Source: an uncultured Myxococcaceae bacterium (GTDB lineage: Bacteria > Myxococcota > Myxococcia > Myxococcales > Myxococcaceae). Taken from it: DNA of 46,068 nt. Positions 3,255 through 38,795 of this stretch are shown here, piece by piece (position 1 is the stretch's first letter; every line of letters starts with the position of its first letter). Below the pieces are notes generated by a model that searched no databases, had not been told where the DNA came from, and saw nothing but the letters and a program-made list of their open reading frames with translations. The stretch lies in the NCBI GenBank assembly GCA_964596895.1, contig CAZQVZ010000001.1:1-46068 (forward strand). The letters run 5' to 3'. Both the position numbers and the translations under genes were made by a program.

Positions 3255-4976
3255 CTACTCGCTCGGCAGCTCCGCCAGCACCACCCGGAACGCAGTGTTC
3301 TCCCCTGCCTTGATGGGCGTGGAGAGCACGCGGGTCTTCCCATCCGGTCCGCGCAGCCGCAGCAGGTGCGTCCCCGCCGGCAGCGCCTGATTGAACAGCG
3401 GGGTCTTGCCCAGCTCCCGCTTACCGCGCAGCACCGTGGCCTCGGGGATGGTGATGAGCGTCAGCGTTCCTTCCGCCGCCTTGCGCTGCTTCTTCCCGCC
3501 TGACTCCGCGTCCGCCGTCTGCGCGCCAGCTGTCCCCTGGCCGCTGGGAGTCGCGCCCGCGGCTGTCGGGCCGCCGTCCGTGGCAGCGCTCTCGCCGAAC
3601 ACGCCGAGCCTCGGGTCCTGCCAGAGCGGGAGGGGTTTTGCTTCGGCCGCAGAGGGGTCCAGCCGGTCCTCCGCCGCCGGCGGCAGCGCGAACACCAGCT
3701 TCCACACGCCGAAGCCCCCGCCCACGATGATCACCGCCACCGCGAGCGCGGCCACCGTTCCCCAGCGACCCGAGCGCGCCTCTTCACCCCCGGCGACACC
3801 ACCCTCCACCTTGGTATCCGGCGCCGGCAGGGTGGGGCGGACGTTGGTGTCCCGCGGCAGGTCCGGCTGCGCCTTCACCCGCGCCTTCGGCTTGCCATTG
3901 ACCCGCGCGCCCGGCCTCCGGCCGACCACGCTCTCCTCGAAGTCCATCCCCGCGTCGCCCTTGAGCTGGCCCACTGCCGCGTGCGCCAACTGCTGCGCCT
4001 CCGCCTTCGATTCACCGGCAGATTCGAGGAGCGCCCGGGTGGCGGCCATCTTCTTTTCGAACAGCTCCTTCATCAGGACGGCGATCTGCTCCTGGTCGAA
4101 GAGGATTGGCCCGCAGGCCTTCTCCAGGGCCCGCGCCATGTCCCGCGCCGTCCCGAACCGGTCCGCCCGCTCGCGCGCGAGCGCCCGTGCCACCACGTCC
4201 GACACCGCCTCCGGCACCAGCTCATTGAGCGCGTGCAGCTTCGGGATGGGCTCTTCGAGGATGAGCTTCATCTCCTCGACCTCGGTGGGCGCGGAGAAGA
4301 GCCGCTGGCCCGAGAGCATCTCGTGCAGCATCACCCCGGCGGAGAAGATGTCGCTGCGGCCGTCAATCTCCTCGCCGCGCACCTGCTCCGGAGACATGTA
4401 CCCGGTGGTTCCCTTCACCATCCCCTGGCCGGTGCGCCCGAGCTTCCCGCGCACCTTGGCGATGCCGAAGTCGAGCAGCCTGGTGGTGCCGTCGTAGGTC
4501 ACCATCACGTTCTTCTGCGCGACGTCGCGGTGGATGACCGGGTAGCTCCTGCCCACCGGGTCGGTGAACGTGTGCGCGTAGTGCAGGGCGTTGAGGACGT
4601 CCCGCGCCACCGTGCAGGAGAAGCCCAGCGGGATGGTGCGCTTCGCCCGGTTACATGCCGACGCGACCTGGTTGAGGTTCTGGCCGGAGATGAACTCCAT
4701 GGCCAGGTAGAGCCCGTCCTCCTCCTCTCCGAGGTCGAACACCTGCGCGATGTTCGGGTGGCTCAAGGCCGCGGTGATGCGGGCCTCGTCCAGGAACATC
4801 TTCACGAACTGCTCGTCGCCCTTGACGTCCGGGAGGATGCGCTTGACGACGACGTACTTGCGAAAGCCGCCGGGGCCCGCGGTGAAGGCGAGGAACAGCT
4901 CCGCCATCCCGCCGATGCTGAGCTGTGCCAGCACCTCGTACTTACCGATGTGTTGGCCGCGGTAGAGGTCGTCCAT
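3255..4976 (-). CDS. Hanks-type Ser/Thr protein kinase with TM segment and C-terminal PEGA domain
   Basis: Kinase subdomains are YVVVKRI (Lys), HRDVAQKN, LLDFGIAK and GYMSPEQ. TM helix is WGTVAALAVAVIIVGGGFGVW. C-terminal PEGA-like segment is GTLTLITIPEATVLRGKRELGKTPL...LPAGTHLLRL. ATG at 4976. An alternative TTG at 5009 lies 2 nt after the upstream stop. Confidence 0.9.
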   Translation of the reverse strand: MDDLYRGQHIGKYEVLAQLSIGGMAELFLAFTAGPGGFRKYVVVKRILPDVKGDEQFVKMFLDEARITAALSHPNIAQVFDLGEEEDGLYLAMEFISGQNLNQVASACNRAKRTIPLGFSCTVARDVLNALHYAHTFTDPVGRSYPVIHRDVAQKNVMVTYDGTTRLLDFGIAKVRGKLGRTGQGMVKGTTGYMSPEQVRGEEIDGRSDIFSAGVMLHEMLSGQRLFSAPTEVEEMKLILEEPIPKLHALNELVPEAVSDVVARALARERADRFGTARDMARALEKACGPILFDQEQIAVLMKELFEKKMAATRALLESAGESKAEAQQLAHAAVGQLKGDAGMDFEESVVGRRPGARVNGKPKARVKAQPDLPRDTNVRPTLPAPDTKVEGGVAGGEEARSGRWGTVAALAVAVIIVGGGFGVWKLVFALPPAAEDRLDPSAAEAKPLPLWQDPRLGVFGESAATDGGPTAAGATPSGQGTAGAQTADAESGGKKQRKAAEGTLTLITIPEATVLRGKRELGKTPLFNQALPAGTHLLRLRGPDGKTRVLSTPIKAGENTAFRVVLAELPSE

Positions 4977-5011: not shown

Positions 5012-6313
5012 CTACCGCTTTTCGAGGAGCTCCCGGAACACCGGCCGCAGATCTCCCTTCGCCCGCAGCAGCTTCAGGTTCTGCAGGAGGCCTCCGAGCG
5101 CGCGCCCCACCAGCAGCGCCTCCGCCGGAGGCTTGATGCGCACCAGGTCCAAAGGCCGGGACCGCTTGAGCCCCGCCAGCTTCATCAGGGTGTCGTCCCC
5201 GGAGAAGTCCCGGAAGCCCTCCACCGGCCCTCGGCTCAGCTGCACAATCTCCTCGAGCAGCGCCCGCGCCTTGTCCTCACCCAGGTTCACCGTGAAGCCG
5301 CCCTTGCGCATCACCGCCACCCAGTCCGGCGAAGGCCCGCCCAAAGATGCGTCCAGCACCTCGAGGCTCGCCGCATGGAACGCCTCGCTGCCGTTCTTCA
5401 CGCAGCCGAAGTCGAGCACGCCCAACCGCCCGTCCTCCCGGAGGATGAAGTTGCCCGGGTGGGTGTCCGCGTGGATGGCGCGGTGGCGAATCCATGGACC
5501 CCAGGTGGCCCGCACCATCTGCTCGGCCCGGCGCCACCGCTCTTCTTCCGTCCACTGCGCGTGCCCCGCGTCCGCGTCTGCACAGGCCTTCGCCAGGGTC
5601 GGCCCGAAGAAGCGCTCGAGCACCAGCACCCGCTTCGTGCACAGCTCCGGATACGCCTTCGGCGCGCTGAGGTCCGGCCACTCGGCGTAGAGGGTGTGGA
5701 AGCGGTCCAGGAACGCGCGCTCCCGCTCATAGTCCAGCTCGCCGCCAATCTCGGTGCGGATCTCCTGCGCGTAGGTCCCCGAGTCGATGAGCCCGCTCAT
5801 CCCCAGGGCGCCCAACATCGACTCCAGGTTCTTCAGGTCGTCCTCGAGCGCCTCCGCCACGCCCGGGTACTGCACCTTCACCACCACGTCCTCGCCGGTG
5901 TGAAGCTTCGCCGCGTGCACCTGTCCCAAAGACGCGGCGGCGAGCGGCTCGCGCGAGAACTCGGCGAAGAGCGCCTCCACCGAAGCGCCCAACTCCGCCT
6001 GCAGCACCGGCCCAACCTTCTCGAAGGGAAGGGTGGGCGCCTGGGAGAAGAGCTTGCCCATCACCAGGCGCGCCTCGGGGGGCAGCGTGTCCGCGAAGAG
6101 CGAGAGCGTCTGTCCGGCCTTCAAGGCCGCGCCCTTCAACCCGCCGAGCGTCTCCAGGATCCGCTTCGCCGCGAGCTCGTGCCCAGAACCCTGGCCACCA
6201 AAAAGCTTGCGCACCCGGTCAGCGGCCAGCCCCGCGCCCACGCTCGTGGCCATACCGGCCATCTTCCGGAAACGCTGCAGCCGGCCCTGGGGAATCTCGT
6301 CGTCCGTCGCCAT
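5012..6313 (-). CDS. ABC1/UbiB (AarF) family atypical kinase
   Basis: FSREPLAAASLGQVHAAKL..GEDVVVKVQYPG... and HADTHPGNFIL...LGVLDFG are hallmark ABC1-family motifs. Start taken at the internal ATG (MATDDEIPQGRLQRFRKM...). The part of the ORF upstream of it looks non-coding. Confidence 0.9.
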   Translation of the reverse strand: MATDDEIPQGRLQRFRKMAGMATSVGAGLAADRVRKLFGGQGSGHELAAKRILETLGGLKGAALKAGQTLSLFADTLPPEARLVMGKLFSQAPTLPFEKVGPVLQAELGASVEALFAEFSREPLAAASLGQVHAAKLHTGEDVVVKVQYPGVAEALEDDLKNLESMLGALGMSGLIDSGTYAQEIRTEIGGELDYERERAFLDRFHTLYAEWPDLSAPKAYPELCTKRVLVLERFFGPTLAKACADADAGHAQWTEEERWRRAEQMVRATWGPWIRHRAIHADTHPGNFILREDGRLGVLDFGCVKNGSEAFHAASLEVLDASLGGPSPDWVAVMRKGGFTVNLGEDKARALLEEIVQLSRGPVEGFRDFSGDDTLMKLAGLKRSRPLDLVRIKPPAEALLVGRALGGLLQNLKLLRAKGDLRPVFRELLEKR

Positions 6314-6528
6314 CGGAATCGCGCCTGTGGAAGAAGGTGTGGACGGATACTGGAGGCCGCAGGGGAAGGGTGTGGAAAAAGGCGGCAGGTGTCCGACCCC
6401 TGTGGCCAGGTGTGGGTAACCGCCGCTGCCGTCCACAGGTTGCGATCTGCGAATCCGCTTGAGTGACGCGGACTTGGGCAGTTCCCCACAAGATCGACGC
6501 CTCTACGGTCATGACCTCTTGGATCTCT

Positions 6529-6546
6529 CCTCTATTTCTATAGAGG
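6529..6546. promoter_or_regulatory. Perfect inverted repeat CCTCTAT-TTCT-ATAGAGG, nested in GACCTCT...AGAGGTC (6513-6548), in a divergent promoter region
   Basis: Read directly from the sequence. It lies in the locally AT-richer 258-bp spacer between the ABC1 kinase start (6313, -) and the GTG of the next gene (6572, +). Confidence 0.3.
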
Positions 6547-6571
6547 TCTGAAGAAGGGTTAGCGTTCGCCT

Positions 6572-7423
6572 GTGCGTCGCGCCCGCCTGCTCGCCTGCGT
6601 CTTCCTCGTCTGCGTCTGCGCTGCGGTGGGCACGGTGCAAGCCCAGGTCCCCACGGCGCTGGAAGCCGCTGAACACGCGTTCGAAGATCTCGAGTTCGAA
6701 CAAGCGGCGAAGCTCTACCGCCGCGCGCTCTCGGCCCCTGGGAGCCGCGACGAGCGTACCCGGGCCTACCGCGGTCTCGGCCTGTGCCTCGCGTACCTGG
6801 GGGACGCAGCGGGCGCCCAGCGTATGTTCGAGACCTTGCTCGTCCTCGACCCGACCGCGAAGGTGAACACCGCGCTTGGTCCGAAGATCTCCCGGCCGTT
6901 CGAGGCGGCGCTCAGGGCGGTGAAGAAGGCGCCCGCGGAGCTGGCGGTGACGCGCGACGAACGCACAGGCGAGGTCAGCGCGATTCTGACCGGCCTGCTC
7001 CCCGCGGCGGACATCGTGGAGCTCCACTCGATGCCAGGGGAGGACGCCTCGCTGCGCGCACAGGCGCACGCTCCCGGCCCTGCGCGCCTGGAGGTCGAAC
7101 CGTGGAAGGAGGTGCGCGCCTTCGCCCGCGTGTTGGATGCAGGCGGCGGTGAGCTCCTGGGTGACGGCTCGGCGGATGTGCCCTCGAGGTTCGCTGCCAC
7201 CGCGCGCGCCCCCGTGGCGCTCGTGCCGGAGGTGGAGGAAGCGCCGGCGCGCGCGTGGCCGGAGGACCCTGAGCCCACGGACTCGACGAGGCGAACCCGC
7301 TGGCCACTGTGGGTGGCTGGCGCTGCGGTGGTCATCGGCGGAGGCGTGGCCGCGGCCCTGGCGCTGCGCCCACCCGAGCCGTTGAGCCTGCCGCCCGCGG
7401 ACCGCTCCGGGAGGTTGCCCTGA
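6572..7423 (+). CDS. Secreted/anchored hypothetical protein with an N-terminal TPR-like helix pair and a C-terminal TM helix
   Basis: GTG start. Signal MRRARLLACVFLVCVCAAVGTVQA. TPR-like segment AEHAFEDLEFEQAAKLYRRAL...AYRGLGLCLAYLGDAAGAQRMFETLLVLDP. C-terminal WPLWVAGAAVVIGGGVAAALAL. Confidence 0.6.
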   Translation: MRRARLLACVFLVCVCAAVGTVQAQVPTALEAAEHAFEDLEFEQAAKLYRRALSAPGSRDERTRAYRGLGLCLAYLGDAAGAQRMFETLLVLDPTAKVNTALGPKISRPFEAALRAVKKAPAELAVTRDERTGEVSAILTGLLPAADIVELHSMPGEDASLRAQAHAPGPARLEVEPWKEVRAFARVLDAGGGELLGDGSADVPSRFAATARAPVALVPEVEEAPARAWPEDPEPTDSTRRTRWPLWVAGAAVVIGGGVAAALALRPPEPLSLPPADRSGRLP

Positions 7424-8693: not shown

Positions 8694-10034
8694 TCAACCT
8701 CCTCGAAGCAGCATCACCAGCGCCGCGGTCCCGTTCATCACCACGTGCAGGGCGATGGGCGCCTTGAGCCCACCGCTCGCCAACCTCGCCCAGCCGAGCA
8801 CCACGCCGTACCAGAGGATGAGCAGCACGAAGGCGCCGTAGTACAGGTGCAGCACCGCGAAGAGCGAGGCGGAGATGACCAGCGCCGCCACCTTCGGCAG
8901 AAAGCCTGCGAGCCACGGCAACACCGCGCCGCGGAACAAGAGCTCTTCGCCCATGGGTCCCAACACCACCACCGGCAGGATGAACAGGGCCCAGCCCAAC
9001 GGCCCCAACGGTCCCTGCGCCAGGGCGTGGAGCGGCGAGTCCCCGAACGGCGCCGGCGCAGCGTCCTGCGTGAGCGCGGTGAAGACGAGGACGCAGATGC
9101 CGACGCGCAGCGCGCCGGTGAGCCCATACAGCACGCCGAGCCCGACCGCGTGCGGCCAGGGGAGGGTGGGCGAGCGCTCGGCGCGGTGGCCCCAACCCTT
9201 GCGGCGCGCTCGGCGCCACAGCCAGAGCCCGCCGGCGATGAGCAGCACCGTCTGCGCGAGGACTCCGACGAGGAAGGTGCCCGCGGCCTGGCCGCCGATG
9301 AGCGTGCAGGTCAACAGCGACGCGCCGCTCGCGCCGGCGGAGACCCCCACCAGGAGCAGCGCCGCCCACAGCACCGTCGCGTCCATGCCGCGGCGCCGGC
9401 CCCAGGCGTAGAGCCCGAAGACCGCCAGCGCGCCGATGAGGGGAAAGATGAAGCCGCGTCGCAGGGGACCTCCCCCAGGTGCGCAGGTCGAGCCCGGGTC
9501 CGGCTCGAACAGGCCCCGGGTCACGTGGGCGCCGAGCGGGACTGCGACGCTGAGCAGGTCGCCTTCGCGCTCCACCTCGACCTGCACCGTGTCCCCAGGC
9601 GAATGCTCGGCGAGCCGCGCGCGCAGCTCCGCCAGGGTCGAGACCTGCTGCTCATCCACCCGCCGCACCACGTCACCCGCGCGCAGGCCCGCTGCTGCGG
9701 CCGCGCCGCCCGCGACGGCCTCCTCCAGCCTGGGCGGAGTCGAGCCCGCTTCAATCCGCACGCCCAGCGTCACCCGCGGCGCCGCCGAGCCCACAGCCAC
9801 CGGCTGCTGCGGCATTCCCCCCAACACGCTCACCAGGAGCAGCACCAGCACCACATCCAGGGTGAACAGCCCGAACAGCGCACGGGTCCACCGGCGGTGC
9901 GACGCGCGCTCGGCCTCGGGGACGCGCCGGTCGTACGCGGCGATGAGCGCGAGCGTCAGCGCCGCCGGCAGGCCCAGCCCCGGAACGAAGATGCCGCCCA
10001 GGGCGATGTGGAAGAACAGCCGGGCGCGGCTCAC
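8694..10034 (-). CDS. PDZ domain-containing CPBP (CAAX/Abi) family intramembrane glutamic endopeptidase
   Basis: PDZ-like segment GLRAGDVVRRVDEQQVSTLAELRARL...GDTVQVEVEREG lies between TM helices. The C-terminal CPBP motifs are GPMGEELLFRG and FAVLH...PIALHVVMN. The GTG start overlaps the upstream stop (GTGA). Confidence 0.85.
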   Translation of the reverse strand: MSRARLFFHIALGGIFVPGLGLPAALTLALIAAYDRRVPEAERASHRRWTRALFGLFTLDVVLVLLLVSVLGGMPQQPVAVGSAAPRVTLGVRIEAGSTPPRLEEAVAGGAAAAAGLRAGDVVRRVDEQQVSTLAELRARLAEHSPGDTVQVEVEREGDLLSVAVPLGAHVTRGLFEPDPGSTCAPGGGPLRRGFIFPLIGALAVFGLYAWGRRRGMDATVLWAALLLVGVSAGASGASLLTCTLIGGQAAGTFLVGVLAQTVLLIAGGLWLWRRARRKGWGHRAERSPTLPWPHAVGLGVLYGLTGALRVGICVLVFTALTQDAAPAPFGDSPLHALAQGPLGPLGWALFILPVVVLGPMGEELLFRGAVLPWLAGFLPKVAALVISASLFAVLHLYYGAFVLLILWYGVVLGWARLASGGLKAPIALHVVMNGTAALVMLLRGG

Positions 10035-19800: not shown

Positions 19801-21162
19801 CTAATCCGCGCCCTTGATGCAGGCGATGGGACGCAGCCGCTTGTGCACCCGCGCCAGGTGCGCCTCCTCGACGGTCTCCAGCACGTCGTCGAGGTTCTTG
19901 TAGCAAGGCCCGCTTTCGTCCAACGGCGTCTGCCGCGTGTTGAGCAGGATGCCGGCCTCCGCCATCCGCGCGTCGGTCCGCTTCTGGTCCAGGGACCGCT
20001 TCGCCTCGCCCCGCGAGAGCCTGCGGCCCGCGCCGTGGTTCACCGAGTAGATGGACTTCGCTGCGTGCTCCTCGGCGAAGAGGATGGCGCTGCCGGTCTC
20101 CATGGACCCCGGGATGAGGATGGGGTGCCCGCTCTTCTCCCAGGTGGTGCCCCTGAGCGCCGGGTGCCCGCCGGGGAAGGCGCGGGTGGCGCCCTTGCGC
20201 GCCACGAAGCGGCCGGACTCCTTCTGGATGAGGTTGTGGGAGATCTCGTAATAGATCTCCGCGCTCCCTCCGAAGACGGCCTCGAGCGCCTCGCACACCG
20301 CCTCGCCGATGATGAGCCGGTTGGCCACGGCGAAGTTGGCGGCCATGTTGTGGAGGTTCCAGTACTCGCGGCCGAGCTTCGAGTCCGCGTCGAACCAGAC
20401 GTGGTCCTCGCTCGCGCGGGAGAGCTCCAGGTTCTTCGCGCCGAGCACGAAGAACTGCTTGGCGATGTTCCACCCGAAGCCGCGGCTGCCGGTGTGGAGC
20501 ATCACCCAGACGTTCCCGTCCTCATCCACCTGCATCTCGGTGAAGTGGTTCCCGCCGCCGAGCGAACCCAACTGGTCCCGCTTGGCGTACGCGCGGTCGG
20601 GGATGTCCACCCGGTCGTCTTCGACGGGGATGAAGCTGCGCTCGGTGACGTTGGAGGTCCGGCCGAGCGCCTTGGCGCCGTGGCGAACCACTTCGGCGAA
20701 GGTCTTCGAGTCCACCTTGCGCTGCTTCTGCACGCGGCTCGCGCCCACGCCCACGGCGATGCGCCGGGTGACCTCGTCAATCCACTGCCGCCGCTTCTTC
20801 ACGTCCGCGATGTCGTCCGCGGTGAGCGTGGTCCGAAGCTGCACCATCCCACAGCCGATGTCGTAGCCCGCCGCCGTGGGCAGCAGCACCCCTTCGGTTT
20901 CGATGGCGGTTCCAATGGGCACGCCGTAGCCCACGTGGCAGTCCGGCGTCACCGCGACCCGGGTCACGCCCGGGAAGCTGGCGGCGTTGACCACCTGCGA
21001 GAACACCGCCTCCTCCAGGCCCATGTCGCCGTTGGTCTTGTCCGGCTCGCCCCACAGGAGCTTGTCGGAGAGGAACAGGTCCGCGTGGGTGCGCATGGTC
21101 TTCGTCTGCGGCAGCACCCAGTGCCCGTCGCCCACCTTCTCCAGTGTCTGCTTCCAGCTCAT
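19801..21162 (-). CDS. rtcB: RNA-splicing ligase RtcB
   Basis: Motifs PDCHVGYG, GYDIGCGM, GSLGGGNHF, HTGSRGFG, HNMAANFA, YEISHN and SVNHGAGR are all diagnostic of RtcB. GGAG RBS. Confidence 0.95.
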   Translation of the reverse strand: MSWKQTLEKVGDGHWVLPQTKTMRTHADLFLSDKLLWGEPDKTNGDMGLEEAVFSQVVNAASFPGVTRVAVTPDCHVGYGVPIGTAIETEGVLLPTAAGYDIGCGMVQLRTTLTADDIADVKKRRQWIDEVTRRIAVGVGASRVQKQRKVDSKTFAEVVRHGAKALGRTSNVTERSFIPVEDDRVDIPDRAYAKRDQLGSLGGGNHFTEMQVDEDGNVWVMLHTGSRGFGWNIAKQFFVLGAKNLELSRASEDHVWFDADSKLGREYWNLHNMAANFAVANRLIIGEAVCEALEAVFGGSAEIYYEISHNLIQKESGRFVARKGATRAFPGGHPALRGTTWEKSGHPILIPGSMETGSAILFAEEHAAKSIYSVNHGAGRRLSRGEAKRSLDQKRTDARMAEAGILLNTRQTPLDESGPCYKNLDDVLETVEEAHLARVHKRLRPIACIKGAD

Positions 21163-21246: not shown

Positions 21247-21280
21247 CCCCCTCTCCCTCTGGGAGAAGGTTGGGGTGAGG
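21247..21280. repeat. REP-like GC-rich palindromic element (CCCCCTCTCCC-TCT-GGGAGAAGGTTGGGGTGAGGG)
   Basis: Hairpin TCTCCC-tct-GGGAGA (21252-21266) flanked by CCCC/GGGG runs. It lies between the ATP-grasp stop (21302) and the rtcB start (21162). The core is the same type as the hairpin at 13214-13232. Confidence 0.3.
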
Positions 21281-21301
21281 GCCTCGGGTGAAGCCCCGCG
21301 G

Positions 21302-22255
21302 TCACCGCCCCCTGGCGCGCACGTTCTCCACCAGGTACCGCGCGATCGCCGCGCTGATGGGGTGCCCGAGCTTCCGCTCCACATCCAGGTAGATGGGCGA
21401 AGAGTTCAGCTCGAGGAACACCCAATCATCCCCCTGCTGCTTGATGTCGATGCCCGCGAACGCCAGCCCCAGCTCGCGGGCGGCCTTCACGCACTGGACC
21501 TTCACCGCGTCGGGGAGGGTGACCTCGCGGTACATGGCCTTGCCCGCGCTGTAGACGTCGTCCCCGCGGAAGTCGAGGTGCTGCGCCGGCGTCACGATGG
21601 CCACGCTGGAGACGATCTCGTCGCCCACGAGCATGATGCGCAGATCGTCTCCGGGCGCGCGGGACTGGAAGATGACCGGCGAGGTGGTGATGGCAGGGAG
21701 CTGCTCGAGCGCCTCGTCATCCAGGGGGCGGGTCAAGGCGCCGCCCATCACCGGCTTGAAGATGACGTCGCCCACCTCGGCCTTGAAGGCGCGGACCTTC
21801 GCCGGGTCGTTGGAGATGAGCGTCCGCGGAAGCTGCGCGCCCACGCTGCGCAGGACGTCGAGCTGGAACGGCTTGTACTGGAGCACGCTCGCGGCGTGCG
21901 GCGGGTTCACCATCACCGCGCCGCGCTGCTGCAGGCGAAGGAGCCAGGCCACGAAGAAGGAGGCGCGCTCGCGCTCGTGCATGTAGCGGGTGAACCAGTC
22001 TTCGTACAGCCGCAGCTCCCCGTCCTGCTCCATGTACGGCGCGTAGGGGGCGGGGATGAAGCGCAGGTAGAAGCCGTGCACGTCGTCGACCTGCACACCT
22101 CTATAGAAGGTGCGGTCGTCGTCGAAGCTGATCGGCAGGCCCGCATCGAAGGCATCCGCTCGAAGCAGAATGTTCTGTGCGCCGAGCTTGTCCAATTCCT
22201 TCGCCACTGCGTGGCACTGCAGGTCCTGGTCACTCCCGAAGATGCCGATCTTCAT
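21302..22255 (-). CDS. ATP-grasp ligase, microviridin/graspetide macrocyclase-like (MdnB/MdnC family)
   Basis: 317 aa. YKPFQLDVLRSVGAQLPRTLISNDPAKVRAFKAEVGDVIFKPVMGG, DDLRIMLVGDEIVSSVAI...HLDFR, and GLAFAGIDIKQQGDDWVFLELNSSP (E-x-N Mg site). Size and motif order are as I recall for MdnC-type enzymes. It is divergent from a multi-core TTxxxxEE peptide gene. Confidence 0.85.
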   Translation of the reverse strand: MKIGIFGSDQDLQCHAVAKELDKLGAQNILLRADAFDAGLPISFDDDRTFYRGVQVDDVHGFYLRFIPAPYAPYMEQDGELRLYEDWFTRYMHERERASFFVAWLLRLQQRGAVMVNPPHAASVLQYKPFQLDVLRSVGAQLPRTLISNDPAKVRAFKAEVGDVIFKPVMGGALTRPLDDEALEQLPAITTSPVIFQSRAPGDDLRIMLVGDEIVSSVAIVTPAQHLDFRGDDVYSAGKAMYREVTLPDAVKVQCVKAARELGLAFAGIDIKQQGDDWVFLELNSSPIYLDVERKLGHPISAAIARYLVENVRARGR

Positions 22256-22357
22256 TTTCCTGCTCCAAACCAGGGTTCTTTACGCAACCCGTCAAATGAC
22301 CTGCCGACAATGGGGGTGAATGTAGGCCTCACCCTTGCGAACACGAAGGTTACTGCC

Positions 22358-23038
22358 ATGAAGATTCCTGCGTCCTTCATCAAGTACGAGCTGCCCCGCT
22401 GCGACTCGAACGCCGACGACTCCCAGAAGACCACCAAGGCCCTGGGCGAAGAGGGCGGGAACAAGCCGCCTCCGGACATGACCACCCAGGCCGTGGGCGA
22501 AGAGGGTGGCACCAAGCCGCCTCCTGTCTACCCGACCCTGGCGGTGGGTGAAGAGGGCGGCACCAAGCCCAAGTCCAACGGCGGCGGCGGCGACGGGTTC
22601 GACGCCACCACGATGGCGGTGGGCGAAGAGGGTGGCACCAAGCCGCCTCCCGTCTACACCACGCTGGCGGTGGGCGAAGAGGGCGGGACGAAGCCGCCTC
22701 CGGACATGACCACCATGGCAGTGGGCGAAGAGGGCGGGACGAAGCCGCCTCCCGTCTACACCACGCTGGCGGTGGGCGAAGAGGGCGGGACCGCGCCGAA
22801 GACGTCCGACAAGGGCGACGGCTTCGAGACCACGCAGGCCGTGGGCGAAGAGGGTGGCAGCCGGCCGCCGCCGGACATGACCACCATGGCGGTGGGCGAG
22901 GAGGGTGGCAGCAAGCCGCCTCCCGTCTACACCACCCTGGCCGTGGGCGAAGAGGGCGGGACCAAGCCGCCGTCCAAGGATGACCCCATCCTGACCACCA
23001 TGGCGGTGGGCGAAGAGGGCGGCAGCGGCACCAAGTAG
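22358..23038 (+). CDS. Putative graspetide (omega-ester peptide) precursor with a 24-aa leader and 11 tandem TTxA[VL]GEEGG cores
   Basis: ATG 22358 with GAAGG about 10 nt upstream (alternative ATG at 22310). High GC3 in this frame only. MKIPASFIKYELPRCDSNADDSQK, then 11 x (T-T-x-A-V/L-G-E-E-G-G plus a Pro-rich or DGF-containing spacer). TAG at 23036-23038. Confidence 0.75.
   Translation: MKIPASFIKYELPRCDSNADDSQKTTKALGEEGGNKPPPDMTTQAVGEEGGTKPPPVYPTLAVGEEGGTKPKSNGGGGDGFDATTMAVGEEGGTKPPPVYTTLAVGEEGGTKPPPDMTTMAVGEEGGTKPPPVYTTLAVGEEGGTAPKTSDKGDGFETTQAVGEEGGSRPPPDMTTMAVGEEGGSKPPPVYTTLAVGEEGGTKPPSKDDPILTTMAVGEEGGSGTK
22430..23023 (+). repeat. In-frame tandem coding repeat array (11 units of 51-69 nt, with a three-unit super-repeat)
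   Basis: The string ggcgaagagggYggc recurs 11 times. Spacers alternate between (T/S/N)(K/R)PPPDM, (T/S)KPPPVY and long DGF(D/E)-containing versions. Confidence 0.9.
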
Positions 23039-23067
23039 AGAGTTGCACGCGTCCATCGCGGGCACGG

Positions 23068-23115
23068 ACGCCACCTGGAGACCTCCTCCCCCGGGTCTTC
23101 AGGTGGCGTTGTCTT
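23068..23115 (+). terminator. Strong intrinsic-terminator-like hairpin directly after the precursor gene
   Basis: ACGCCACCTGGAGACC (23068-23083) pairs with GGTCTTCAGGTGGCGT (23094-23109). This is 16 bp with one G-U pair and a 10-nt loop, followed by TTGTCTT. It begins 30 nt after the stop. Confidence 0.6.
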
Positions 23116-23182
23116 GAGCGGTCCCGGTGATGGCAACGGCCTTGCGGATGCCGCTCGCGACCTCGCCGTGTAACCTCGCCGA

Positions 23183-24928: not shown

Positions 24929-26188
24929 ATGAAGCTGAAGCGACGCCAGGTGCTGTGGATGCTCGGAGCGGGCGGCGTGACGTTGGGCGGGATGCGGCAC
25001 GGGTTCGTGCGCGCGGCCAGGCCGGCGGCGCCGGACGGTCCGCTCTCGAAGGAAGCGCAGGCCCTCTACGACCGTGCCTGGGAAGGGCTGGACCCGCCCC
25101 AGGTGCTCGACACCCACGCGCACGTGGTGGGCCTGGGGACCGGCGGCAGCGGCTGCTGGGTCAACCCCAACATGCAGAGCCTCCTCAACCCGCTGCAGTA
25201 CGCACGCTTCGCCATCTACAAGCGCGCCGGCGGCGTGACGGACGCAGACGACGCAGACCGCCAGTACGTGGAGCAACTGGTCGCGCGGGTGCGTTCGCAG
25301 ACCCCCCACGGGCGGATGCTCATCCTCGCCTTCGACTGGGCGCACGACGACTCCGGCGCCATCGACCGCGCGGCCACCGAATTCCACACGCCCAACGACT
25401 ACGTCCTGCAGCTCGCCCGCGAGTTCCCCGACTGCTTCGTGCCCGTGGCCTCCATCCATCCGTATCGCAAGGACGCGGTGGACGAACTGCACCGGGTGGT
25501 CGAAGCCGGCGCGGTGGCGGTGAAGTGGCTGCCCAACGCGCAGGTCATCGATCCCGCGGCGGCGCGCTGTGACGACTTCTACCGCGCGCTCGCAGAGCTG
25601 GAGGTGCCGCTCATCTCCCACGCGGGCGAAGAGCGCGCGGTACACGCGGAAGAAGCGCAGAAGCTCGGCAACCCGCTGCGGCTGCGCCGGCCGCTGGAGG
25701 CGGGCGTCAAGGTCGTGGTGTCCCACTGCGCCTCTCTGGGCATGGGCGAAGACCTGGACGCCGGAGAAGGCGCGCCGCAGGTGGAGAACTTCGACCTCTT
25801 CCTCCGGATGATGGACGAGCCCCAGTACGAAGGCCGCCTCTTCGGGGACATCTCCGCGCTGCCCCAGTTCAACCGCGCCGGCAAGCCGCTGCAGCAGATG
25901 CTCGAGCGGACGGACCTGCACCACCGGCTGGTCAACGGCAGCGACTACCCACTCCCGGCCATCAACGCGCTCACCCGCACCGGCGTGCTCGTCGGCCTGC
26001 ACTACCTCGACGACGCGCAGCGCGAGCTGTTGAACGAGCTCGACCAGCACAACCCGCTCGCGTTCGACTTCGCGCTCAAGCGCACCTTGCGCCTGAAGAC
26101 CGCGGACGGGACGGTGCAGGCCTTCGCGCCGGCCATCTTCCAGGCGCCGAACGGGCTGTTCCCGAGGCTGCCACCACCGCCAGCCTGA
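24929..26188 (+). CDS. Tat-exported metal-dependent amidohydrolase (TIM-barrel, Amidohydro_2-like)
   Basis: MKLKRRQVLWMLGAGGVTLG twin-Arg signal. LDTHAHVVG (HxH), ...ISHAGEE..., VVVSHCAS and NGSDYP metal-ligand-like positions. Confidence 0.8.
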   Translation: MKLKRRQVLWMLGAGGVTLGGMRHGFVRAARPAAPDGPLSKEAQALYDRAWEGLDPPQVLDTHAHVVGLGTGGSGCWVNPNMQSLLNPLQYARFAIYKRAGGVTDADDADRQYVEQLVARVRSQTPHGRMLILAFDWAHDDSGAIDRAATEFHTPNDYVLQLAREFPDCFVPVASIHPYRKDAVDELHRVVEAGAVAVKWLPNAQVIDPAAARCDDFYRALAELEVPLISHAGEERAVHAEEAQKLGNPLRLRRPLEAGVKVVVSHCASLGMGEDLDAGEGAPQVENFDLFLRMMDEPQYEGRLFGDISALPQFNRAGKPLQQMLERTDLHHRLVNGSDYPLPAINALTRTGVLVGLHYLDDAQRELLNELDQHNPLAFDFALKRTLRLKTADGTVQAFAPAIFQAPNGLFPRLPPPPA

Positions 26189-27736: not shown

Positions 27737-27835
27737 CCTCGGGAAAGCCGAGGTATGTGGACGTAACTTCCTTATTCTCTATATCCGGGCGTCCTGCGAG
27801 AGGTGCTGCACACGCAGTTCACGTCAGGAAACGAA

Positions 27836-28990
27836 ATGCAGACGCCTCACCCCGAAGTCCGACACCCGAGCACCCGCACCGCCTTGTTCATCCTCACCCT
27901 CGCCTTGACCCTGGGGTGTGGCTCTCCGGAGGGGACGGAGGATGGGCCGGACGCGGGCGGCGGCGGGGACGGCACTGACGCAGGCCAGACGGCCAACGCG
28001 CCGGAGGTCGAGAGCACCTCGCCCCTGGCCGCTGCGACGGACGTCGCCCTGAACGCGCCCATCACCGCGCACTTTAGCCAGGACCTCTCGCCCGTCTCCG
28101 TCACCGCGGCCACCTTCACCGTGACCATGGGGACCGCCCAGACGCCGGTCGCCGGAGTGGTCATCTACGCCAACCGGCGCGCCCACTTCTGGCCCGCCCA
28201 CAGGTTGCAGAGCAACACCGCGTACACCGCGACGGTGCACACCGGCGTCCTGAACACAGAAGGCGCGGCGCTCGCCGAGTCCCACGGCTGGACCTTCACC
28301 ACCGGTGACAGCGTGGGGCCGGGGCTGCCGGTGGACCTTGGGACCGCGGGCGGCTTCGTCATCCTCTCCAAGAGCGGCGTCTCCACGGTGCCCACCTCGG
28401 CGGTGACCGGCAACATCGGCGTGAGCCCCGCGGCGGCCAGCTACATCACCGGGTTCTCGCTCACCGTGGACGGGACGAACGTCTTCTCCTCGTCGCCCCA
28501 GGTGACCGGCCAGCTCTACGCCGCGGACTACGCCGCGCCGACTCCCGCGAACCTGACCACCGCCGTGGGTGACATGCAGCTCGCCTTCACCGACGCCGCC
28601 GGCAGGTCCTCCGACTTCACCGAACATGGCGCAGGCGACATCGGCGGGATGACACTCGCGCCGGGCGTCTACAAGTGGGGCACCGGCGTGCTGGTCCCCA
28701 CCGACGTCACGCTGAACGGCTCGGCGACGGACGTGTGGATCTTCCAGGTTGCCCAGGACCTGACCGTGGCCAACGGCGTCACGGTCCTCCTCTCCGGCGG
28801 AGCCCTGGCGAAGAACGTGTTCTGGCAGGTGGCGGGGAAGGTGGAGCTCGGCACCACCGCTCACATGGAGGGCGTCCTCCTCAGCCAGACCTCCATCACC
28901 CTGCAGACCGGCGCCTCCTTGAACGGCCGGATGCTGGCGCAGACGGCGGTGGACCTGGACGGGAGCACTGTGGTCCAGCCCGCGCCGTAG
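27836..28990 (+). CDS. Lipoprotein with an Ig-like (SbsA/Big_5-type) domain and a DUF3494 ice-binding-family beta-solenoid
   Basis: TALFILTLALTLGC lipobox. PEVESTSPLAAATDVALNAPITAHFSQDL...TVT... Ig-like. LGTAGGFVILSKSGVSTVPTSAVTGNIGVSPAAASYITGF ... GVYKWGTGV ... LNGRMLAQTAVDL are typical of DUF3494. Confidence 0.8.
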   Translation: MQTPHPEVRHPSTRTALFILTLALTLGCGSPEGTEDGPDAGGGGDGTDAGQTANAPEVESTSPLAAATDVALNAPITAHFSQDLSPVSVTAATFTVTMGTAQTPVAGVVIYANRRAHFWPAHRLQSNTAYTATVHTGVLNTEGAALAESHGWTFTTGDSVGPGLPVDLGTAGGFVILSKSGVSTVPTSAVTGNIGVSPAAASYITGFSLTVDGTNVFSSSPQVTGQLYAADYAAPTPANLTTAVGDMQLAFTDAAGRSSDFTEHGAGDIGGMTLAPGVYKWGTGVLVPTDVTLNGSATDVWIFQVAQDLTVANGVTVLLSGGALAKNVFWQVAGKVELGTTAHMEGVLLSQTSITLQTGASLNGRMLAQTAVDLDGSTVVQPAP

Positions 28991-35506: not shown

Positions 35507-35791
35507 ATGTCGGACGCGAAGGCCCTCTCCGAGCGCGCGCGCCAGCTCGTCGGCGAAGGCGCACTCCTCCTCGACGTGCGCACCCCTGAAGAGTTTCGGC
35601 AGGGGCACCTCGACGGCGCGGTGAACATTCCGGTGCAGGAGCTCGCACGCAGGCTCGCGGAGCTCGAGCCGAAGGCGCGCCCCCTGGTCGTCTATTGCGC
35701 GGCGGGCATGCGCGCGCAGTCGGCGGTGGAGCTGCTGGTCCGCCAGGGCTTCGAGAAGGTCCTCTGCCTGGGCGGGATGAGCGCCTGGTGA
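35507..35791 (+). CDS. Single-domain rhodanese-like sulfurtransferase
   Basis: LLLDVRTPEEFRQGHLDGAVNIP ... PLVVYCAAGMRAQ (active-site CxxGxR loop). Confidence 0.85.
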   Translation: MSDAKALSERARQLVGEGALLLDVRTPEEFRQGHLDGAVNIPVQELARRLAELEPKARPLVVYCAAGMRAQSAVELLVRQGFEKVLCLGGMSAW

Positions 35792-35826
35792 AGCAATCAA
35801 TCAAAGATGAAGTGGAAGGAGCAGAC

Positions 35827-37206
35827 ATGAGAGCCGTATCCCTGATCCTCTGCCTGATGGCCCCCCTGGCCTTCGCGCAGGCCCCGGCCTCCGCGTCCCT
35901 GAAGGTGGAGCATGAGAAGTACCAGCTCGACAACGGGCTGGAGGTCATCCTCCACGTCGACAAGCGGCTGCCGGTGGTGGCGGTCAACGTCTGGTACCAC
36001 GTGGGCGCGTTCCACGAGCCCGAGGGCCGCAGCGGCTTCGCGCACCTGTTCGAACACATGATGTTCCAGGGCTCGGCGCACGTCGGAGACGACCAGCACA
36101 TCGGCATGCTGGAGCGGCTCGGCGCCACCGACCTCAACGGCACCACCAACTTCTACCGGACGAACTACTTCCAGAGCGTCCCCACGAACCACCTGGAGAC
36201 GGCGCTGTGGCTGGAGAGCGACCGGATGGGCTTCCTCCTCCCTGCGCTCACCGGGGAGAAGCTGAAGACGCAGCAGGAGGTGGTGAAGAACGAGCGGCGC
36301 CAGCGCATCGAGACCGCGCCGTACGGCTTCGCGCAGGAGAAGCTCTGGCAGACGATGTTCCCCCAGCGGCACCCGTACCATGGCCGGGTCATCGGCTCGA
36401 TGGCGGACCTCGAGGCAGCCACCGTCAAGGACGTGAGCGACTTCTTCACCACCTGGTACGCGCCCTCCAACGCCACGCTCGCCATCGCCGGGGACATCGA
36501 CCCTGCGCAGGTGAAGCCGCTGGTGGAGAAGTACTTCGGCTCCCTCCCCGGCGCGCCTGAGCCGAAGGCGCCGGAGGTCGCGGACGCGAAGCTGGAGAAG
36601 GAGACGGTGCTCTCGCACGACGAGCAGATCGCCACGCTGCCTGGCCTCTTCATGGCCTGGCACACCCCGGCGCTGTTCGAGGAGGGGGACGCCGCCAGCG
36701 ACGTGCTCTCCTCCGTCCTCTCCGAAGGCAAGGCGAGCCGGCTGCACAGAAGGCTCGTCCGCGAGAAGCGCATCGCCCAGTCGGTGAGCGCGTTCCAGTG
36801 GAGCATCCAGGGCCAGAGCGTGTTCATGGTGGAGGCCATCGCCGCGCCGGGGCACGACGTGCAGGCGCTGCAGGCGGAGATCGACGCGGTGCTGAACGAG
36901 GTGCGCGAGAAGGGCGTGACCGAAGAGGAGGTCCGCCGCGCGCGCAACCGCATCGAGACCGACTTCGTGGCCGGCCTGCAGTCGGTGGGCGGGATGAGCG
37001 GCAAGGCGGACCGGATGCAGCTGTACAACCACTTCTTCGGTGAGCCGGATGGCTTCGGGCGGGACCTCGCACGCTACGAGGCGGTGACCCCCCAGGCGGT
37101 GCAGGCGTTCGCGAAGACGTACCTCACCCCGGAGCGCCGCGCGGTGATGCGCGCAGTGCCGGCCGGTGGTGCGCAGGCCGAGCAGGCCCAGAAGGAGATC
37201 AAGTGA
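35827..37206 (+). CDS. M16-family (pitrilysin-type) zinc peptidase, active subunit
   Basis: ATG 35827 with GGAAGGAG upstream. Signal MRAVSLILCLMAPLAFA. Inverted zinc motif GFAHLFEHMMFQG (HxxEH) and downstream ...NGTTN...T.Y. Confidence 0.9.
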   Translation: MRAVSLILCLMAPLAFAQAPASASLKVEHEKYQLDNGLEVILHVDKRLPVVAVNVWYHVGAFHEPEGRSGFAHLFEHMMFQGSAHVGDDQHIGMLERLGATDLNGTTNFYRTNYFQSVPTNHLETALWLESDRMGFLLPALTGEKLKTQQEVVKNERRQRIETAPYGFAQEKLWQTMFPQRHPYHGRVIGSMADLEAATVKDVSDFFTTWYAPSNATLAIAGDIDPAQVKPLVEKYFGSLPGAPEPKAPEVADAKLEKETVLSHDEQIATLPGLFMAWHTPALFEEGDAASDVLSSVLSEGKASRLHRRLVREKRIAQSVSAFQWSIQGQSVFMVEAIAAPGHDVQALQAEIDAVLNEVREKGVTEEEVRRARNRIETDFVAGLQSVGGMSGKADRMQLYNHFFGEPDGFGRDLARYEAVTPQAVQAFAKTYLTPERRAVMRAVPAGGAQAEQAQKEIK

Positions 37207-38795
37207 TGCGCGCGCAGACTCTCTTCATGTCCACGCTCCTGGCCGCGGCGCTCCTCTTCGCCGCCGGCTGCAAGACCACGCCCGAGCCGCGCGAGGACGC
37301 GTCCGCTGACGACCAGGCCGGCGCCAGCGCGCCGGGTGAACTGCCGCAGGTCCCCGAAGGGGAGGCCTGGCGGCAGCAGCTGCCGAAGCCCGGCGAGGCG
37401 CCGGAGCTGGTCATCCCCACCTTCGAGCGGACCACCCTGGGGAACGGGCTCACCCTCATCGTCAGCCAGCGGCGGGACTTGCCCTTGGTGTCCATGGTGG
37501 TGGCGCTCGCGAGCGGCGCGGCGCAGGACCCGGACGGCAAGGCAGGCCTCGCGGAGCTGACCCACCGGACGCTGCTGGAGGGTGCCGGCAAGCGGGACGC
37601 CATCGCGCTCGAAGAGGCGTTCGCGGAGCTGGGCGGCACGCCCTTCGTGGGCACCCAGTATGACGGCGCGGTGCTCGGCACCCGGGTGCTGCGTCGCAAC
37701 GCGCAGGACGCGCTGGCGCTACTCGCGGACGTGGTGCTGCGGCCCACCTTGAAGCCCGAGGACTTCGAGAGGAAGAAGTCGGAGCACCTGAACACGCTCG
37801 CGCGTCAGATTGGGACGCCCGGCTACCTCGCGCAGTGGGCCTTCGCGAACGTGCTCTACGGGGCGAAGCATCCGTATGGGCAGCTCGTGGGCGGCACCCC
37901 GGACTCGGTGCAGGGGCTCACCGGCAAGGACGCGCAGGCGTTCTGGAAGAAGCACGCAGGCCCGCGCGCCGCGGCGCTGGTGGTGACCGGTGATGTGACG
38001 CTGGAAGAGGCGAAGGCCTGGGCGGAGAAGACCTTCGGAGGGTGGAAGAGCGCCGCGGTGCGGCCGCCCAGGCCGCCGGAATTGCCCGTGGCGACGGGGA
38101 CCCAGGTGGTGTTGGTGCCCAAGCCGGGGCTGGTGCAGACGGTGGTGGCCATGGGGCGCCCCTCCATCGAAGCGGGGCACCCGGACGAGGCCGCGCTGGA
38201 ATTGGCTACCACCGTGTTCGGCGGGATGTTCGGCTCGCGGCTGAACATGAACCTGCGCGAGGCGAAGGGCTACACCTACGGCGCCTCCTCCTACGTGAGC
38301 ACGCGCCGCGGTGAAGGTCCCCTGGTGGCGTCGTCTTCGGTGCGGGCGGACGTGACGGGGCCCGCGGTGCAGGAGTTCCTGAACGAGCTGCGCGGGCTGC
38401 AGGAGCGCCCCATCACCGAGGCGGAGCTCACCGACGCGCGGGTGGGGCTCATCCAGTCTTTGCCCGGGAGCTTCAAGACGGTGGACGCGCTGGCGCAGGC
38501 CGCGGCCGGCATCTGGCTGTCGGAGAAGGACCTCGACCATTACCGGAAGCTCGTGGAGCGGCTGGAGGCCGCCACCCCCGCGCAGGTGCAGGCCGCCGCG
38601 GAGCAGTACTTCGCGCCGAAGACCCTGAACCTGGTCCTGGTCGGTGACCCCGAGGTGGTCCGCAAGCAGCTCGAGCCGCTGGGGCTCGGCGAGCTCCAGG
38701 TGCGCCCCCCGCCGGAGGTGCCGAAGGGTGCCGCGCCCGCTGGCAAGCCCGCCGCGAAGCCGGCGCCGGGCGGCTCCACGTCCAGCGCGCCGTAG
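37203..38795 (+). CDS. M16-family peptidase-like lipoprotein lacking HxxEH (probable non-catalytic partner subunit)
   Basis: The start overlaps the upstream stop (GTGATG). MMRAQTLFMSTLLAAALLFAAGC. M16 fold signatures are GLAELTHRTLLEGAG and ...NLREAKGYTYGASS..., but there is no HxxEH. Confidence 0.85.
   Translation: MMRAQTLFMSTLLAAALLFAAGCKTTPEPREDASADDQAGASAPGELPQVPEGEAWRQQLPKPGEAPELVIPTFERTTLGNGLTLIVSQRRDLPLVSMVVALASGAAQDPDGKAGLAELTHRTLLEGAGKRDAIALEEAFAELGGTPFVGTQYDGAVLGTRVLRRNAQDALALLADVVLRPTLKPEDFERKKSEHLNTLARQIGTPGYLAQWAFANVLYGAKHPYGQLVGGTPDSVQGLTGKDAQAFWKKHAGPRAAALVVTGDVTLEEAKAWAEKTFGGWKSAAVRPPRPPELPVATGTQVVLVPKPGLVQTVVAMGRPSIEAGHPDEAALELATTVFGGMFGSRLNMNLREAKGYTYGASSYVSTRRGEGPLVASSSVRADVTGPAVQEFLNELRGLQERPITEAELTDARVGLIQSLPGSFKTVDALAQAAAGIWLSEKDLDHYRKLVERLEAATPAQVQAAAEQYFAPKTLNLVLVGDPEVVRKQLEPLGLGELQVRPPPEVPKGAAPAGKPAAKPAPGGSTSSAP

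Follow-up and report, generated by a model that had tools for sequence, protein, structure and literature searches.

What product is encoded by a locus in which a single ATP-grasp ligase gene faces a divergent open reading frame (ORF) that repeats one ten-residue motif eleven times? The locus in question occupies positions 21302-23117 of a 46,068-nucleotide stretch of contig CAZQVZ010000001.1 (assembly GCA_964596895.1), from an uncultured Myxococcaceae bacterium; the whole stretch, here called the window, has a guanine plus cytosine (GC) content of 70%. Sequence comparison, a predicted fold, and analogy with the plesiocin enzyme PsnB and its precursor PsnA2 together make it very probable that the product is a group 2 (plesiocin-type) graspetide, encoded in a high-GC Myxococcota genome by a minimal locus of two biosynthetic genes. 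Gene anatomy, homology, the conservation of functional residues, and the family-wide conservation of leader and core can be read directly from the DNA and its relatives, and these are presented before the chemistry that they imply.

Organization of the locus

The features of the locus, in window coordinates, are:

21302-22255, minus strand: ATP-grasp peptide macrocyclase gene, PsnB homologue (317-amino-acid ORF, ATG start)
22256-22357, no strand: divergent intergenic region of 102 bp, presumed to hold the promoters and ribosome-binding sites of both genes
22358-23038, plus strand: precursor peptide gene (226 amino acids, 22.7 kDa, pI 4.4; stop codon 23036-23038)
22358-22429, plus strand: leader peptide MKIPASFIKYELPRCDSNADDSQK, 24 amino acids (start backed by the N-termini of homologous precursors)
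22373-22399, plus strand: leader recognition motif S-F-I-K-Y-E-L-P-R, amino acids 6-14, conserved in related precursors
22430-22459, plus strand: core 1, TTKALGEEGG
22481-22510, plus strand: core 2, TTQAVGEEGG
22532-22561, plus strand: core 3, PTLAVGEEGG (first Thr missing; at most one ester, the inner ring)
22607-22636, plus strand: core 4, TTMAVGEEGG
22658-22687, plus strand: core 5, TTLAVGEEGG
22709-22738, plus strand: core 6, TTMAVGEEGG
22760-22789, plus strand: core 7, TTLAVGEEGG
22829-22858, plus strand: core 8, TTQAVGEEGG
22880-22909, plus strand: core 9, TTMAVGEEGG
22931-22960, plus strand: core 10, TTLAVGEEGG
22994-23023, plus strand: core 11, TTMAVGEEGG
23067-23117, plus strand: probable intrinsic terminator (18-bp perfect stem, 8-nt loop, then UUGUCUU), 28 nt past the precursor stop

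A first-pass annotation of the same DNA had placed the ligase gene, the 102-bp gap and the 226-residue ORF at these positions and strands, and its coordinates are exact. Its division of the ORF into a 24-residue leader and eleven core copies, the third beginning P-T, is borne out by the translation, and its assignment of the cores to the TTxxxxEE motif of plesiocin-type (group 2) precursors stands, the pattern being the same as plesiocin TTxAIGEE.

The precursor peptide

The eleven cores begin at amino acids 25, 42, 59, 84, 101, 118, 135, 158, 175, 192, and 213 of the precursor, and ten of them read TTxA[V/L]GEEGG, the exception being core 3 (PTLAVGEEGG). The plesiocin core is TTxxxxEE, and because the "AIGEE region" named in the plesiocin structure paper contains Gly36, Glu37, and Glu38, it can be written more fully as TTxAIGEE. 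The third core residue (K, Q, L, M, L, M, L, Q, M, L, and M in cores 1-11) is the only strongly variable core position. Cores are joined by seven-residue Pro-rich linkers, in which TKPPPVY alternates with TKPPPDM, and by three longer ones. A degenerate DNA pattern for TxA[VL]GEEGG has 11 matches, all of them in the precursor ORF, against an expectation of 0.00 (100 shuffles), and Tandem Repeats Finder reports periods of 51 bp and 102 bp. The repeats make up a 102-bp super-unit (TTM...PPPVY / TTL...PPPDM).

Codon composition in the precursor frame carries a high-GC coding signature, with GC fractions of 0.65, 0.56, and 0.89 at codon positions 1, 2, and 3; in the two long antisense ORFs the third-position fraction (GC3) is only 0.65 and 0.58. 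By this measure the plus frame is the coding frame. Pairwise comparison of the cores gives 140 synonymous and 62 non-synonymous codon differences, the latter mostly at the variable third residue. The Glu-Glu pair is encoded as GAA-GAG in 10 of the 11 cores, while GAG prevails nearby (2 GAA to 13 GAG in the ligase gene; 5 to 26 in the neighbouring rtcB gene). This uniformity probably reflects recent repeat homogenisation; a conserved Glu-Glu codon signature was considered and rejected, as the pattern is not kept in relatives.

The leader motif is SFIKYEL in the window, and the form [PS]F[ITV]x[YF]E[LT]P recurs in nine related precursors, where it lies 15-32 residues before the first core. From the alignment of motifs, leader Phe7 is presumed to be the counterpart of PsnA2 Phe15. 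A Shine-Dalgarno-like GAAGG lies 8 nt upstream of the precursor ATG, and GGAG lies 7 nt upstream of the ligase ATG on the minus strand. Downstream of the precursor, the region 23036-23125 folds with a minimum free energy of -43.5 kcal/mol (z -2.8), and none of 200 shuffled sequences folds as well; the hairpin at 23067-23117 was revealed by this RNA folding, having been missed by a consensus terminator scan.

The ATP-grasp ligase

In Pfam, the ligase matches only generic ATP-grasp domains (RimK at 45.7 bits and GSH-S_ATP at 31.8 bits). In NCBIfam, the top three matches are ATP-grasp ribosomal-peptide-maturase models (TIGR04187, TIGR04185, and TIGR04184), with scores of 112 bits for TIGR04187, 83 for MvdC, and 74 for MvdD; next come the RimK-family model TIGR00768 (49.9 bits, cut-off 143.4) and GshB models (36-38 bits, cut-offs 272-299). 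A phmmer search of all PDB sequences returns PsnB as the best match (7DRM, 7DRN, 7DRO, and 7DRP; E 3e-43, 151 bits, residues 3-300 aligned), followed by PruB (71 bits), MdnC (50), MdnB (44), AMdnB (41), RimK (38), CdnC (29), and GshB (22). The direct BLASTP alignment with PsnB spans 299 amino acids at 34% identity (E 4e-50, 155 bits).

The predicted structure gives the same order. An AlphaFold2 model built with 40 homologues is of high confidence (mean predicted local distance difference test score 90.4; predicted template modelling score 0.87), and in a Foldseek search with this model ranks 1-14 are all PsnB chains (template modelling scores 0.76-0.81), after which come MdnC, AMdnB, PruB, CdnC, and MdnB, and then RimK, ArgX, and LysX. 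Structural alignments with MdnC and MdnB show 20-23% identity. By sequence and by predicted fold, the closest characterised relative of the ligase is PsnB. The enzyme had earlier been called MdnC-like; the description as a graspetide macrocyclase holds, while the particular resemblance is to PsnB instead, and both the phmmer and the Foldseek rankings favour the graspetide macrocyclases over a grouping with RimK and GshB.

As regards the published graspetide sequence-similarity networks (Lee 2020, Ramesh 2021, and the 2026 RODEO update, the last at an alignment score of 70), the 155-bit PsnB score would probably give no edge at a score of 70; without a direct edge, membership in the group 2 cluster would therefore depend on intermediates. 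Assignment to group 1 (microviridins) was ruled out, as the locus has no TxKYPSDxE/D core, no PFFARFL leader, a single ligase, and no GNAT gene. The "long repeat precursor" graspetide groups 34 and 35 (PMC13097080) were also rejected, their representatives being Streptomyces and Nostoc sequences with unrelated motifs.

Residues with assigned functions in PsnB are largely retained. In the PsnB study (bioRxiv 10.1101/2021.03.09.434688), recognition of the ring-forming Glu is assigned to Arg213 and contact with the core backbone to Arg72; the DFR233-235 loop is indispensable and touches ATP, and Arg101 binds the second Glu and is conserved in group 2a enzymes only. The same study describes a pocket for leader Phe15 formed by Tyr171, Ile193, Leu196, Val201, and Phe203, a pairing of Arg181 with leader Asp18, and a modest contribution from Arg192. 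In the phmmer alignment, R72, R101, and R213 correspond to R65, R95, and R206 of the window ligase, the DFR loop to D228-F229-R230, the pocket residues to F166, L186, I189, V194, and F196, and R181 to R176. Eleven positions (R65, R95, R206, D228, F229, R230, K167, V194, F196, E282, and N284) are invariant in 40 of 40 clade members. Judged from these residues, the ligase looks fully functional, and it carries the group-2a-specific arginine.

Relatives and the range of core number

Homologues of the ligase number 287 in the protein collection at E<=1e-10, and those that are named all belong to the Myxococcota (Archangium, Vitiosangium, Hyalangium, and metagenome-assembled genomes, or MAGs, labelled Myxococcaceae or Polyangiaceae). 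A TTxAxGEE precursor adjoins the ligase gene in every relative with readable DNA, usually in divergent orientation; a homologous precursor occupies the same divergent position in L001, L002, L003, L008, L009, and L010. The related loci compared are listed with the identity of their ligase to that of the window and the number of cores in their precursor:

L001, MAG: 83% identity, 10 cores
L010, MAG: 81% identity, 9 cores
L002, MAG: 68% identity, 9 cores
L003, MAG: 69% identity, 12 cores
L005, MAG (contig end cuts the precursor): 66% identity, at least 11 cores
L006, MAG: 62% identity, 17 cores
L009, Hyalangium rubrum: 66% identity, 2 cores
L008, Archangium minus: 67% identity, 1 core

Nine related loci keep the ORF, the leader motif and the divergent layout and vary in linkers and core number, as would be expected if selection acted on the cores as its units. 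A database search with the precursor finds 222 proteins at E<=1e-5; the best 120 of these carry 1-16 TTxxxxEE motifs (mode 8), and among them are proteins of Planctomycetes (Stieleria) and cyanobacteria that have Tat signals or large N-terminal domains. Two relevant precursors are already on record in Makarova et al. 2022 (PMC8939145, supplementary file 13): Stigmatella aurantiaca STAUR_8142 (cluster2725; MPRHPKGPSFIQYELP...TTLAVGEEGG...TTMSLREEGG), which has two cores and belongs to the same family as the window precursor, and a Moorea producens precursor with about 15 TTxAxGEE cores. Eleven cores are thus in the upper range and not exceptional, neither a record nor a new concept. The description of the precursor as unusually iterated is apt only beside plesiocin with its four cores, and does not survive comparison with these relatives, the best 120 matches and the published Moorea sequence.

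Within one Myxococcota lineage, the precursor may have grown from the one or two cores of Archangium, Hyalangium, and Stigmatella to the 9-17 cores of the window and related MAGs, in every case keeping the leader short (22-27 residues) and the locus down to two genes, with neither exporter nor protease; if all cores are modified, the products would be among the most ester-crosslinked ribosomal polypeptides known. This proposal is put forward tentatively, with doubts that slightly outweigh confidence.

Some relatives carry additional genes. In L006 (Myxococcales MAG SJ252, JADLDB010000193.1), the 17-core precursor (5099-6070, minus strand) lies between two ATP-grasp genes, one at 4001-4945 that is 62% identical to the window ligase and one at 6130-6972 that is a divergent paralogue (34% identical) with weak, fragmented matches to the maturase models; the latter may be a degenerate partner subunit. 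A 306-amino-acid gene (MKPSRLSFFNEQEP...) with no Pfam or NCBIfam match lies after or near the ligase gene in L002 (4952-5869), L003 (6342-7259), and L006 (7108-8028), and a TPR-like secreted protein of about 380 amino acids is conserved beside the ligase in L003, L005, and L006. Both may be accessory genes of the clade. As parts of the system described here they were rejected, since neither is present in the window.

Proposed mechanism

Ester formation, ring topology, ring order, protease inhibition and leader fate are proposed here from homology to PsnB and PsnA2. In PsnA2, which has the conserved leader element LFIEDL, closure of the inner ring (T32-E37) precedes that of the outer ring (T31-E38). 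By analogy, the 226-residue precursor would be translated and Phe7 of its SFIKYELP motif would dock in the hydrophobic pocket of the ligase and activate it. Each TTxA(V/L)GEE core would then enter the active site, where Arg206 (PsnB Arg213) would set the first Glu beside ATP; this Glu would be phosphorylated and attacked by the second Thr to close the inner ring (T2-E7), after which the second Glu, held by Arg95 (PsnB Arg101), would be joined to the first Thr to close the outer ring (T1-E8). Repetition over the eleven cores would string bicyclic hairpins into a chain that holds up to 21 esters. The maximum is 21 because core 3 lacks the first Thr; this core would form the inner ring only, perhaps poorly, and the equivalent T31A change turns PsnA2 into a much poorer substrate. 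The first-pass annotation had likewise predicted up to 22 dehydrations, or 21 on account of core 3, and the prediction here is of up to 21-22 Thr-Glu esters. PsnB gains affinity from the core glutamates themselves, and in the window the core glutamates would likewise add to enzyme affinity, so that the ligase, after activation by the leader, could plausibly capture distal cores.

Plesiocin inhibits elastase and chymotrypsin with nanomolar Ki, and its LLLR variant (Psn-LLLR) gains trypsin inhibition (PMC10125368). The third core residue of the window precursor would correspond to the plesiocin Leu (LLLL cores) that was changed to Arg for trypsin inhibition. Because this residue varies among the window cores, the product would most likely be a polyvalent serine-protease inhibitor of mixed specificity. 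The potency of plesiocin rises with the number of cyclised motifs (PMC13097080), and by the same analogy potency here would benefit from core copy number.

Alternative explanations

Several points weigh against a graspetide locus of this kind. The NCBIfam maturase scores are far under the curated cut-offs (112 against 350 bits for TIGR04187, 83 against 425 for MvdC, and 74 against 475 for MvdD), so the ligase falls in none of the curated equivalogs, and the alignment with PsnB reaches only about a third identity. PsnB Arg192 is replaced by Gln185, the sole changed residue among those mapped, the pocket being otherwise conserved or conservatively replaced. Compared with PsnA2 LFIEDL, the leader motif SFIKYEL shares Phe-Ile and is one residue longer, which puts the counterpart of Asp18 out of register, and by analogy a single N-terminal leader would have to suffice for modifying cores as far as about 190 residues from it. 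Neither the exact 226-residue product nor the version from an upstream ATG at 22310 is present in a collection of 15 billion proteins that does contain the neighbouring ligase; the precursor frame is open for a further 1.08 kb upstream (ORF 21275-23038), and the gene was therefore either missed by gene callers or, probably, given another start or the other strand. No peptidase-containing ATP-binding cassette transporter (PCAT), ATP-binding cassette (ABC) exporter, HlyD, GNAT or leader protease was found in the whole 46-kb window; the NHLM-type peptidase/ABC transporter and HlyD, which are frequent group 2 companions, are thus both missing from it. The earlier observation that no GNAT, protease or ABC exporter gene adjoins the precursor is correct and, for exporter, GNAT and leader protease, extends to the full window, so the locus leaves maturation and export unexplained. 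A literature search found no paper characterising this locus or any member of its myxobacterial clade.

One alternative, that the 226-residue ORF is a non-coding tandem repeat or an accidental high-GC open frame rather than an expressed gene, would fit the open frame upstream, the two long overlapping antisense ORFs and the missing database entry; its likelihood is close to nil in view of the GC3 of 0.89 (0.58-0.65 in the antisense frames), the excess of synonymous over non-synonymous differences between repeats, the GAAGG before the ATG, the strong hairpin after the stop, and the homologous ORFs found at this position in nine loci, which share leader and core, differ in linkers and copy number, and in several cases are annotated genes. 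It is hardly more credible that the enzyme is a RimK/GshB-type amino-acid ligase (e.g., a poly-glutamylase) that is unrelated to the repeat ORF or adds Glu to it. The generic Pfam matches point that way, and databases label its homologues "RimK family alpha-L-glutamate ligase" or "glutathione synthase/RimK-type ligase"; yet the RimK and GshB models score below both the maturase models and their own cut-offs, PsnB scores over 110 bits higher than RimK, the alignment to PsnB starts at residue 3 and so takes in the N-terminal pre-ATP-grasp region that binds the leader, the equivalents of the graspetide-specific R213 and DFR are conserved, and every relative examined strictly pairs the ligase with a TTxxxxEE precursor. 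A ligase that modifies the repeat peptide with a topology other than that of plesiocin, either one ring per core or inter-core or intermolecular crosslinks that yield a network, is improbable to a lesser degree. The modest identity to PsnB leaves room for it, as do the invariant GG after EE and the Pro-rich linkers, which are not described for plesiocin, and the precedents of Rheinheimera RcpA, where 4-5 of the possible dehydrations occur on variant motifs, and of Gra-5, with one dehydration. Against it, TTxA[VL]GEE is the same pattern as TTxAIGEE and PsnB needs a native TTxxxxEE for efficient reaction; the Glu-binding R206 and R95, and R65 with them, are invariant; and each graspetide enzyme is reportedly specific for the core motif and the connectivity that are cognate to it.

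The weightiest alternative keeps the chemistry and changes the end product. Here the leader would be kept, there would be no dedicated export, and the functional molecule would be the whole 22-kDa protein, a "beads-on-a-string" chain with about 21 esters that acts in the cell or after lysis or is cut at its Lys/Pro-rich linkers by general proteases. This is a serious possibility, though one we lean against. It agrees with the lack of PCAT, ABC, HlyD, GNAT and leader-protease genes, with the two-gene units of the closest relatives (L001 and L010), and with the lack of a double-Gly leader cleavage motif before core 1. Among the 801 group 2 biosynthetic gene clusters of the 2026 RODEO update, 28% have HlyD and just 31% an NHLM-type peptidase transporter; plesiocin itself was assayed as the in vitro product of PsnA2 and PsnB; and many TTxAxGEE repeat proteins of other phyla have large N-terminal domains or Tat signals, not short leaders. 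On the other side, the window is a single 46-kb contig and the rest of the genome may encode a transporter or protease, and L002, L003, L005, and L006 carry extra conserved genes to which no role is assigned. The preferred reading remains a two-gene group 2 graspetide locus with predicted plesiocin-like rings.

Boundaries of the locus and neighbouring genes

The system is taken to comprise the ligase gene, the intergenic region, the precursor gene and the terminator (21302-23117), because the flanking RtcB and amidohydrolase genes are syntenic only in the nearest relatives and the terminator separates the precursor from what lies downstream. Within the intergenic region (22256-22357), the blocks CCTACA-N4-CC.C.ATTGTC and GGTTGCGT are common to L001 (3896-4000) and L010 (3874-4000), while their flanks otherwise diverge among the three loci; from this conservation, the blocks may be a shared promoter or operator. 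A scan of the intergenic region found no sigma-70 consensus promoter. The window contains neither a second ATP-grasp gene nor a second TTxxxxEE ORF.

On the ligase side the neighbours are genes for RtcB (19801-21162), a DUF4412 lipoprotein, a histidine kinase, and a Ser/Thr kinase. Like the ATP-grasp gene, the gene for the RNA ligase RtcB is on the minus strand, 140 bp downstream of it; in L001 and L010 a 128-amino-acid SpoIIAA-like ORF is inserted between the two. RtcB was rejected as part of the system, since it follows the ligase gene only in the window, L001, and L010; its absence from the other relatives marks it as lineage synteny. On the precursor side are a small zinc-ribbon/transmembrane ORF, a weak TonB_C-like ORF, a Tat-signal Amidohydro_2 gene (24929-26188, plus strand), and an FKBP protein gene. 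The Amidohydro_2 gene was likewise rejected, being separated from the precursor by about 1.9 kb and the strong terminator. A 75%-identical orthologue of this protein (PF04909, with a Tat-like signal) directly follows the L010 precursor after an 85-bp gap and is absent from L001 and the other loci. PF04909 includes lactonases; a link of the gene to ester turnover is conceivable, on weak evidence.

The rest of the window encodes kinases, a PDZ-Rce1 protease, a VWA protein, a methyltransferase, a GDSL lipase, an M16 peptidase pair, an AAA ATPase, and dnaN. Its only protease genes are the M16 (insulinase-type) pair (35695-38795, plus strand) and the PDZ-Rce1/CAAX protease (8694-10034, minus strand), which are 12-13 kb from the locus and tied to it by nothing. 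A secreted protein with a Big_5 Ig-like domain and an ice-binding-like domain (PF11999, E 6e-73) is encoded at 27803-28990 on the plus strand and is unrelated to the locus.

Significance

The locus is a real but fairly ordinary addition to a family already known, whose peptides form rings and probably inhibit proteases. Motif, enzyme type and long multi-core precursors have all been documented before, and the picture of graspetide biology is unchanged. If confirmed, the locus would add a naturally highly multivalent relative of plesiocin. If all cores were modified, this product would hold 21-22 esters and that of the 17-core relative as many as 34, the product would be a 22-kDa multi-specific protease-inhibitor "protein", and one N-terminal leader would license catalysis about 190 residues away. 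Because plesiocin potency rises with cyclised motifs and the probable specificity residue differs among cores (K, Q, L, and M), the product could be a ready-made inhibitor of multiple proteases.

The ligase and precursor pair would also be a compact system for asking how far from its leader a graspetide macrocyclase acts and, if all cores are indeed modified, one in which nature itself would allow processive action of graspetide enzymes to be told from distributive action and substrate capture with the help of the cores to be examined. The series of 1 to 17 cores within one clade is a useful natural set for the study of repeat expansion in precursors of peptides that are synthesized ribosomally and modified post-translationally; this series and the bare two-gene architecture hold the chief remaining value of the locus.

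Comparison with known systems

Experimental characterisation in group 2 covers plesiocin (four cores) and a few short members (RcpA and Gra-5). The nearest characterised system, PsnA2/PsnB of Plesiocystis pacifica, also comes from a myxobacterial host and likewise combines a single ATP-grasp macrocyclase (PsnB being the best sequence and fold match to the window ligase) with TTxA(I/V/L)GEE repeated in one precursor; equivalents of R72, R101, R213, and DFR, and residues of the presumed leader Phe pocket, are conserved in the window enzyme. The two differ in core number (4 versus 11), leader motif (LFIEDL versus SFIKYELP, the latter in a very short 24-residue leader) and enzyme sequence (34% identity). 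At the third core position plesiocin has only Leu, whereas the window has K, Q, L, or M, together with one degenerate P-T core. The invariant GG after EE and the Pro-rich PPPVY and PPPDM linkers are features of the window precursor.

The orthologous loci of Stigmatella aurantiaca (STAUR_8142), Hyalangium rubrum, and Archangium minus share the leader xSFIxYELP, TTLAVGEEGG cores, and the divergent layout, with ligases 66-67% identical to that of the window. Their precursors, which come from cultured strains, are shorter (51-72 amino acids with 1-2 cores), in contrast to the 9-17 cores of the window and its nearest MAG relatives. The same iterated core motif occurs in Moorea producens 3L (EGJ32583.1, cluster10071, about 15 cores) and in Stieleria and cyanobacterial proteins (8-16 cores). 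These, however, have large N-terminal domains or Tat signals and conserved C-terminal tails (e.g., PFGxF, WKNFRRW), whereas the window precursor has a short F-x-x-Y-E-L-P leader.

Rheinheimera RcpA/RcpB (PMC11626197) is a confirmed group 2 pair that also joins the TTxxxxEE motif to a single ATP-grasp enzyme; it differs in having one canonical and two variant motifs and a multi-cluster setting with transporter and protease context, with the loss of 4-5 waters. The group 1 microviridin system MdnA/MdnB/MdnC shares the ATP-grasp macrocyclase fold, a leader-dependent mechanism, and equivalents of R213 and D(F/W)R. It is set apart by a KYPSD-type core, a PFFARFL leader, two ligases (one for esters and one for amides), a GNAT and often an ABC transporter, and MdnC and MdnB match the window ligase much more weakly (50 and 44 bits, 20-23% identity) than does PsnB.

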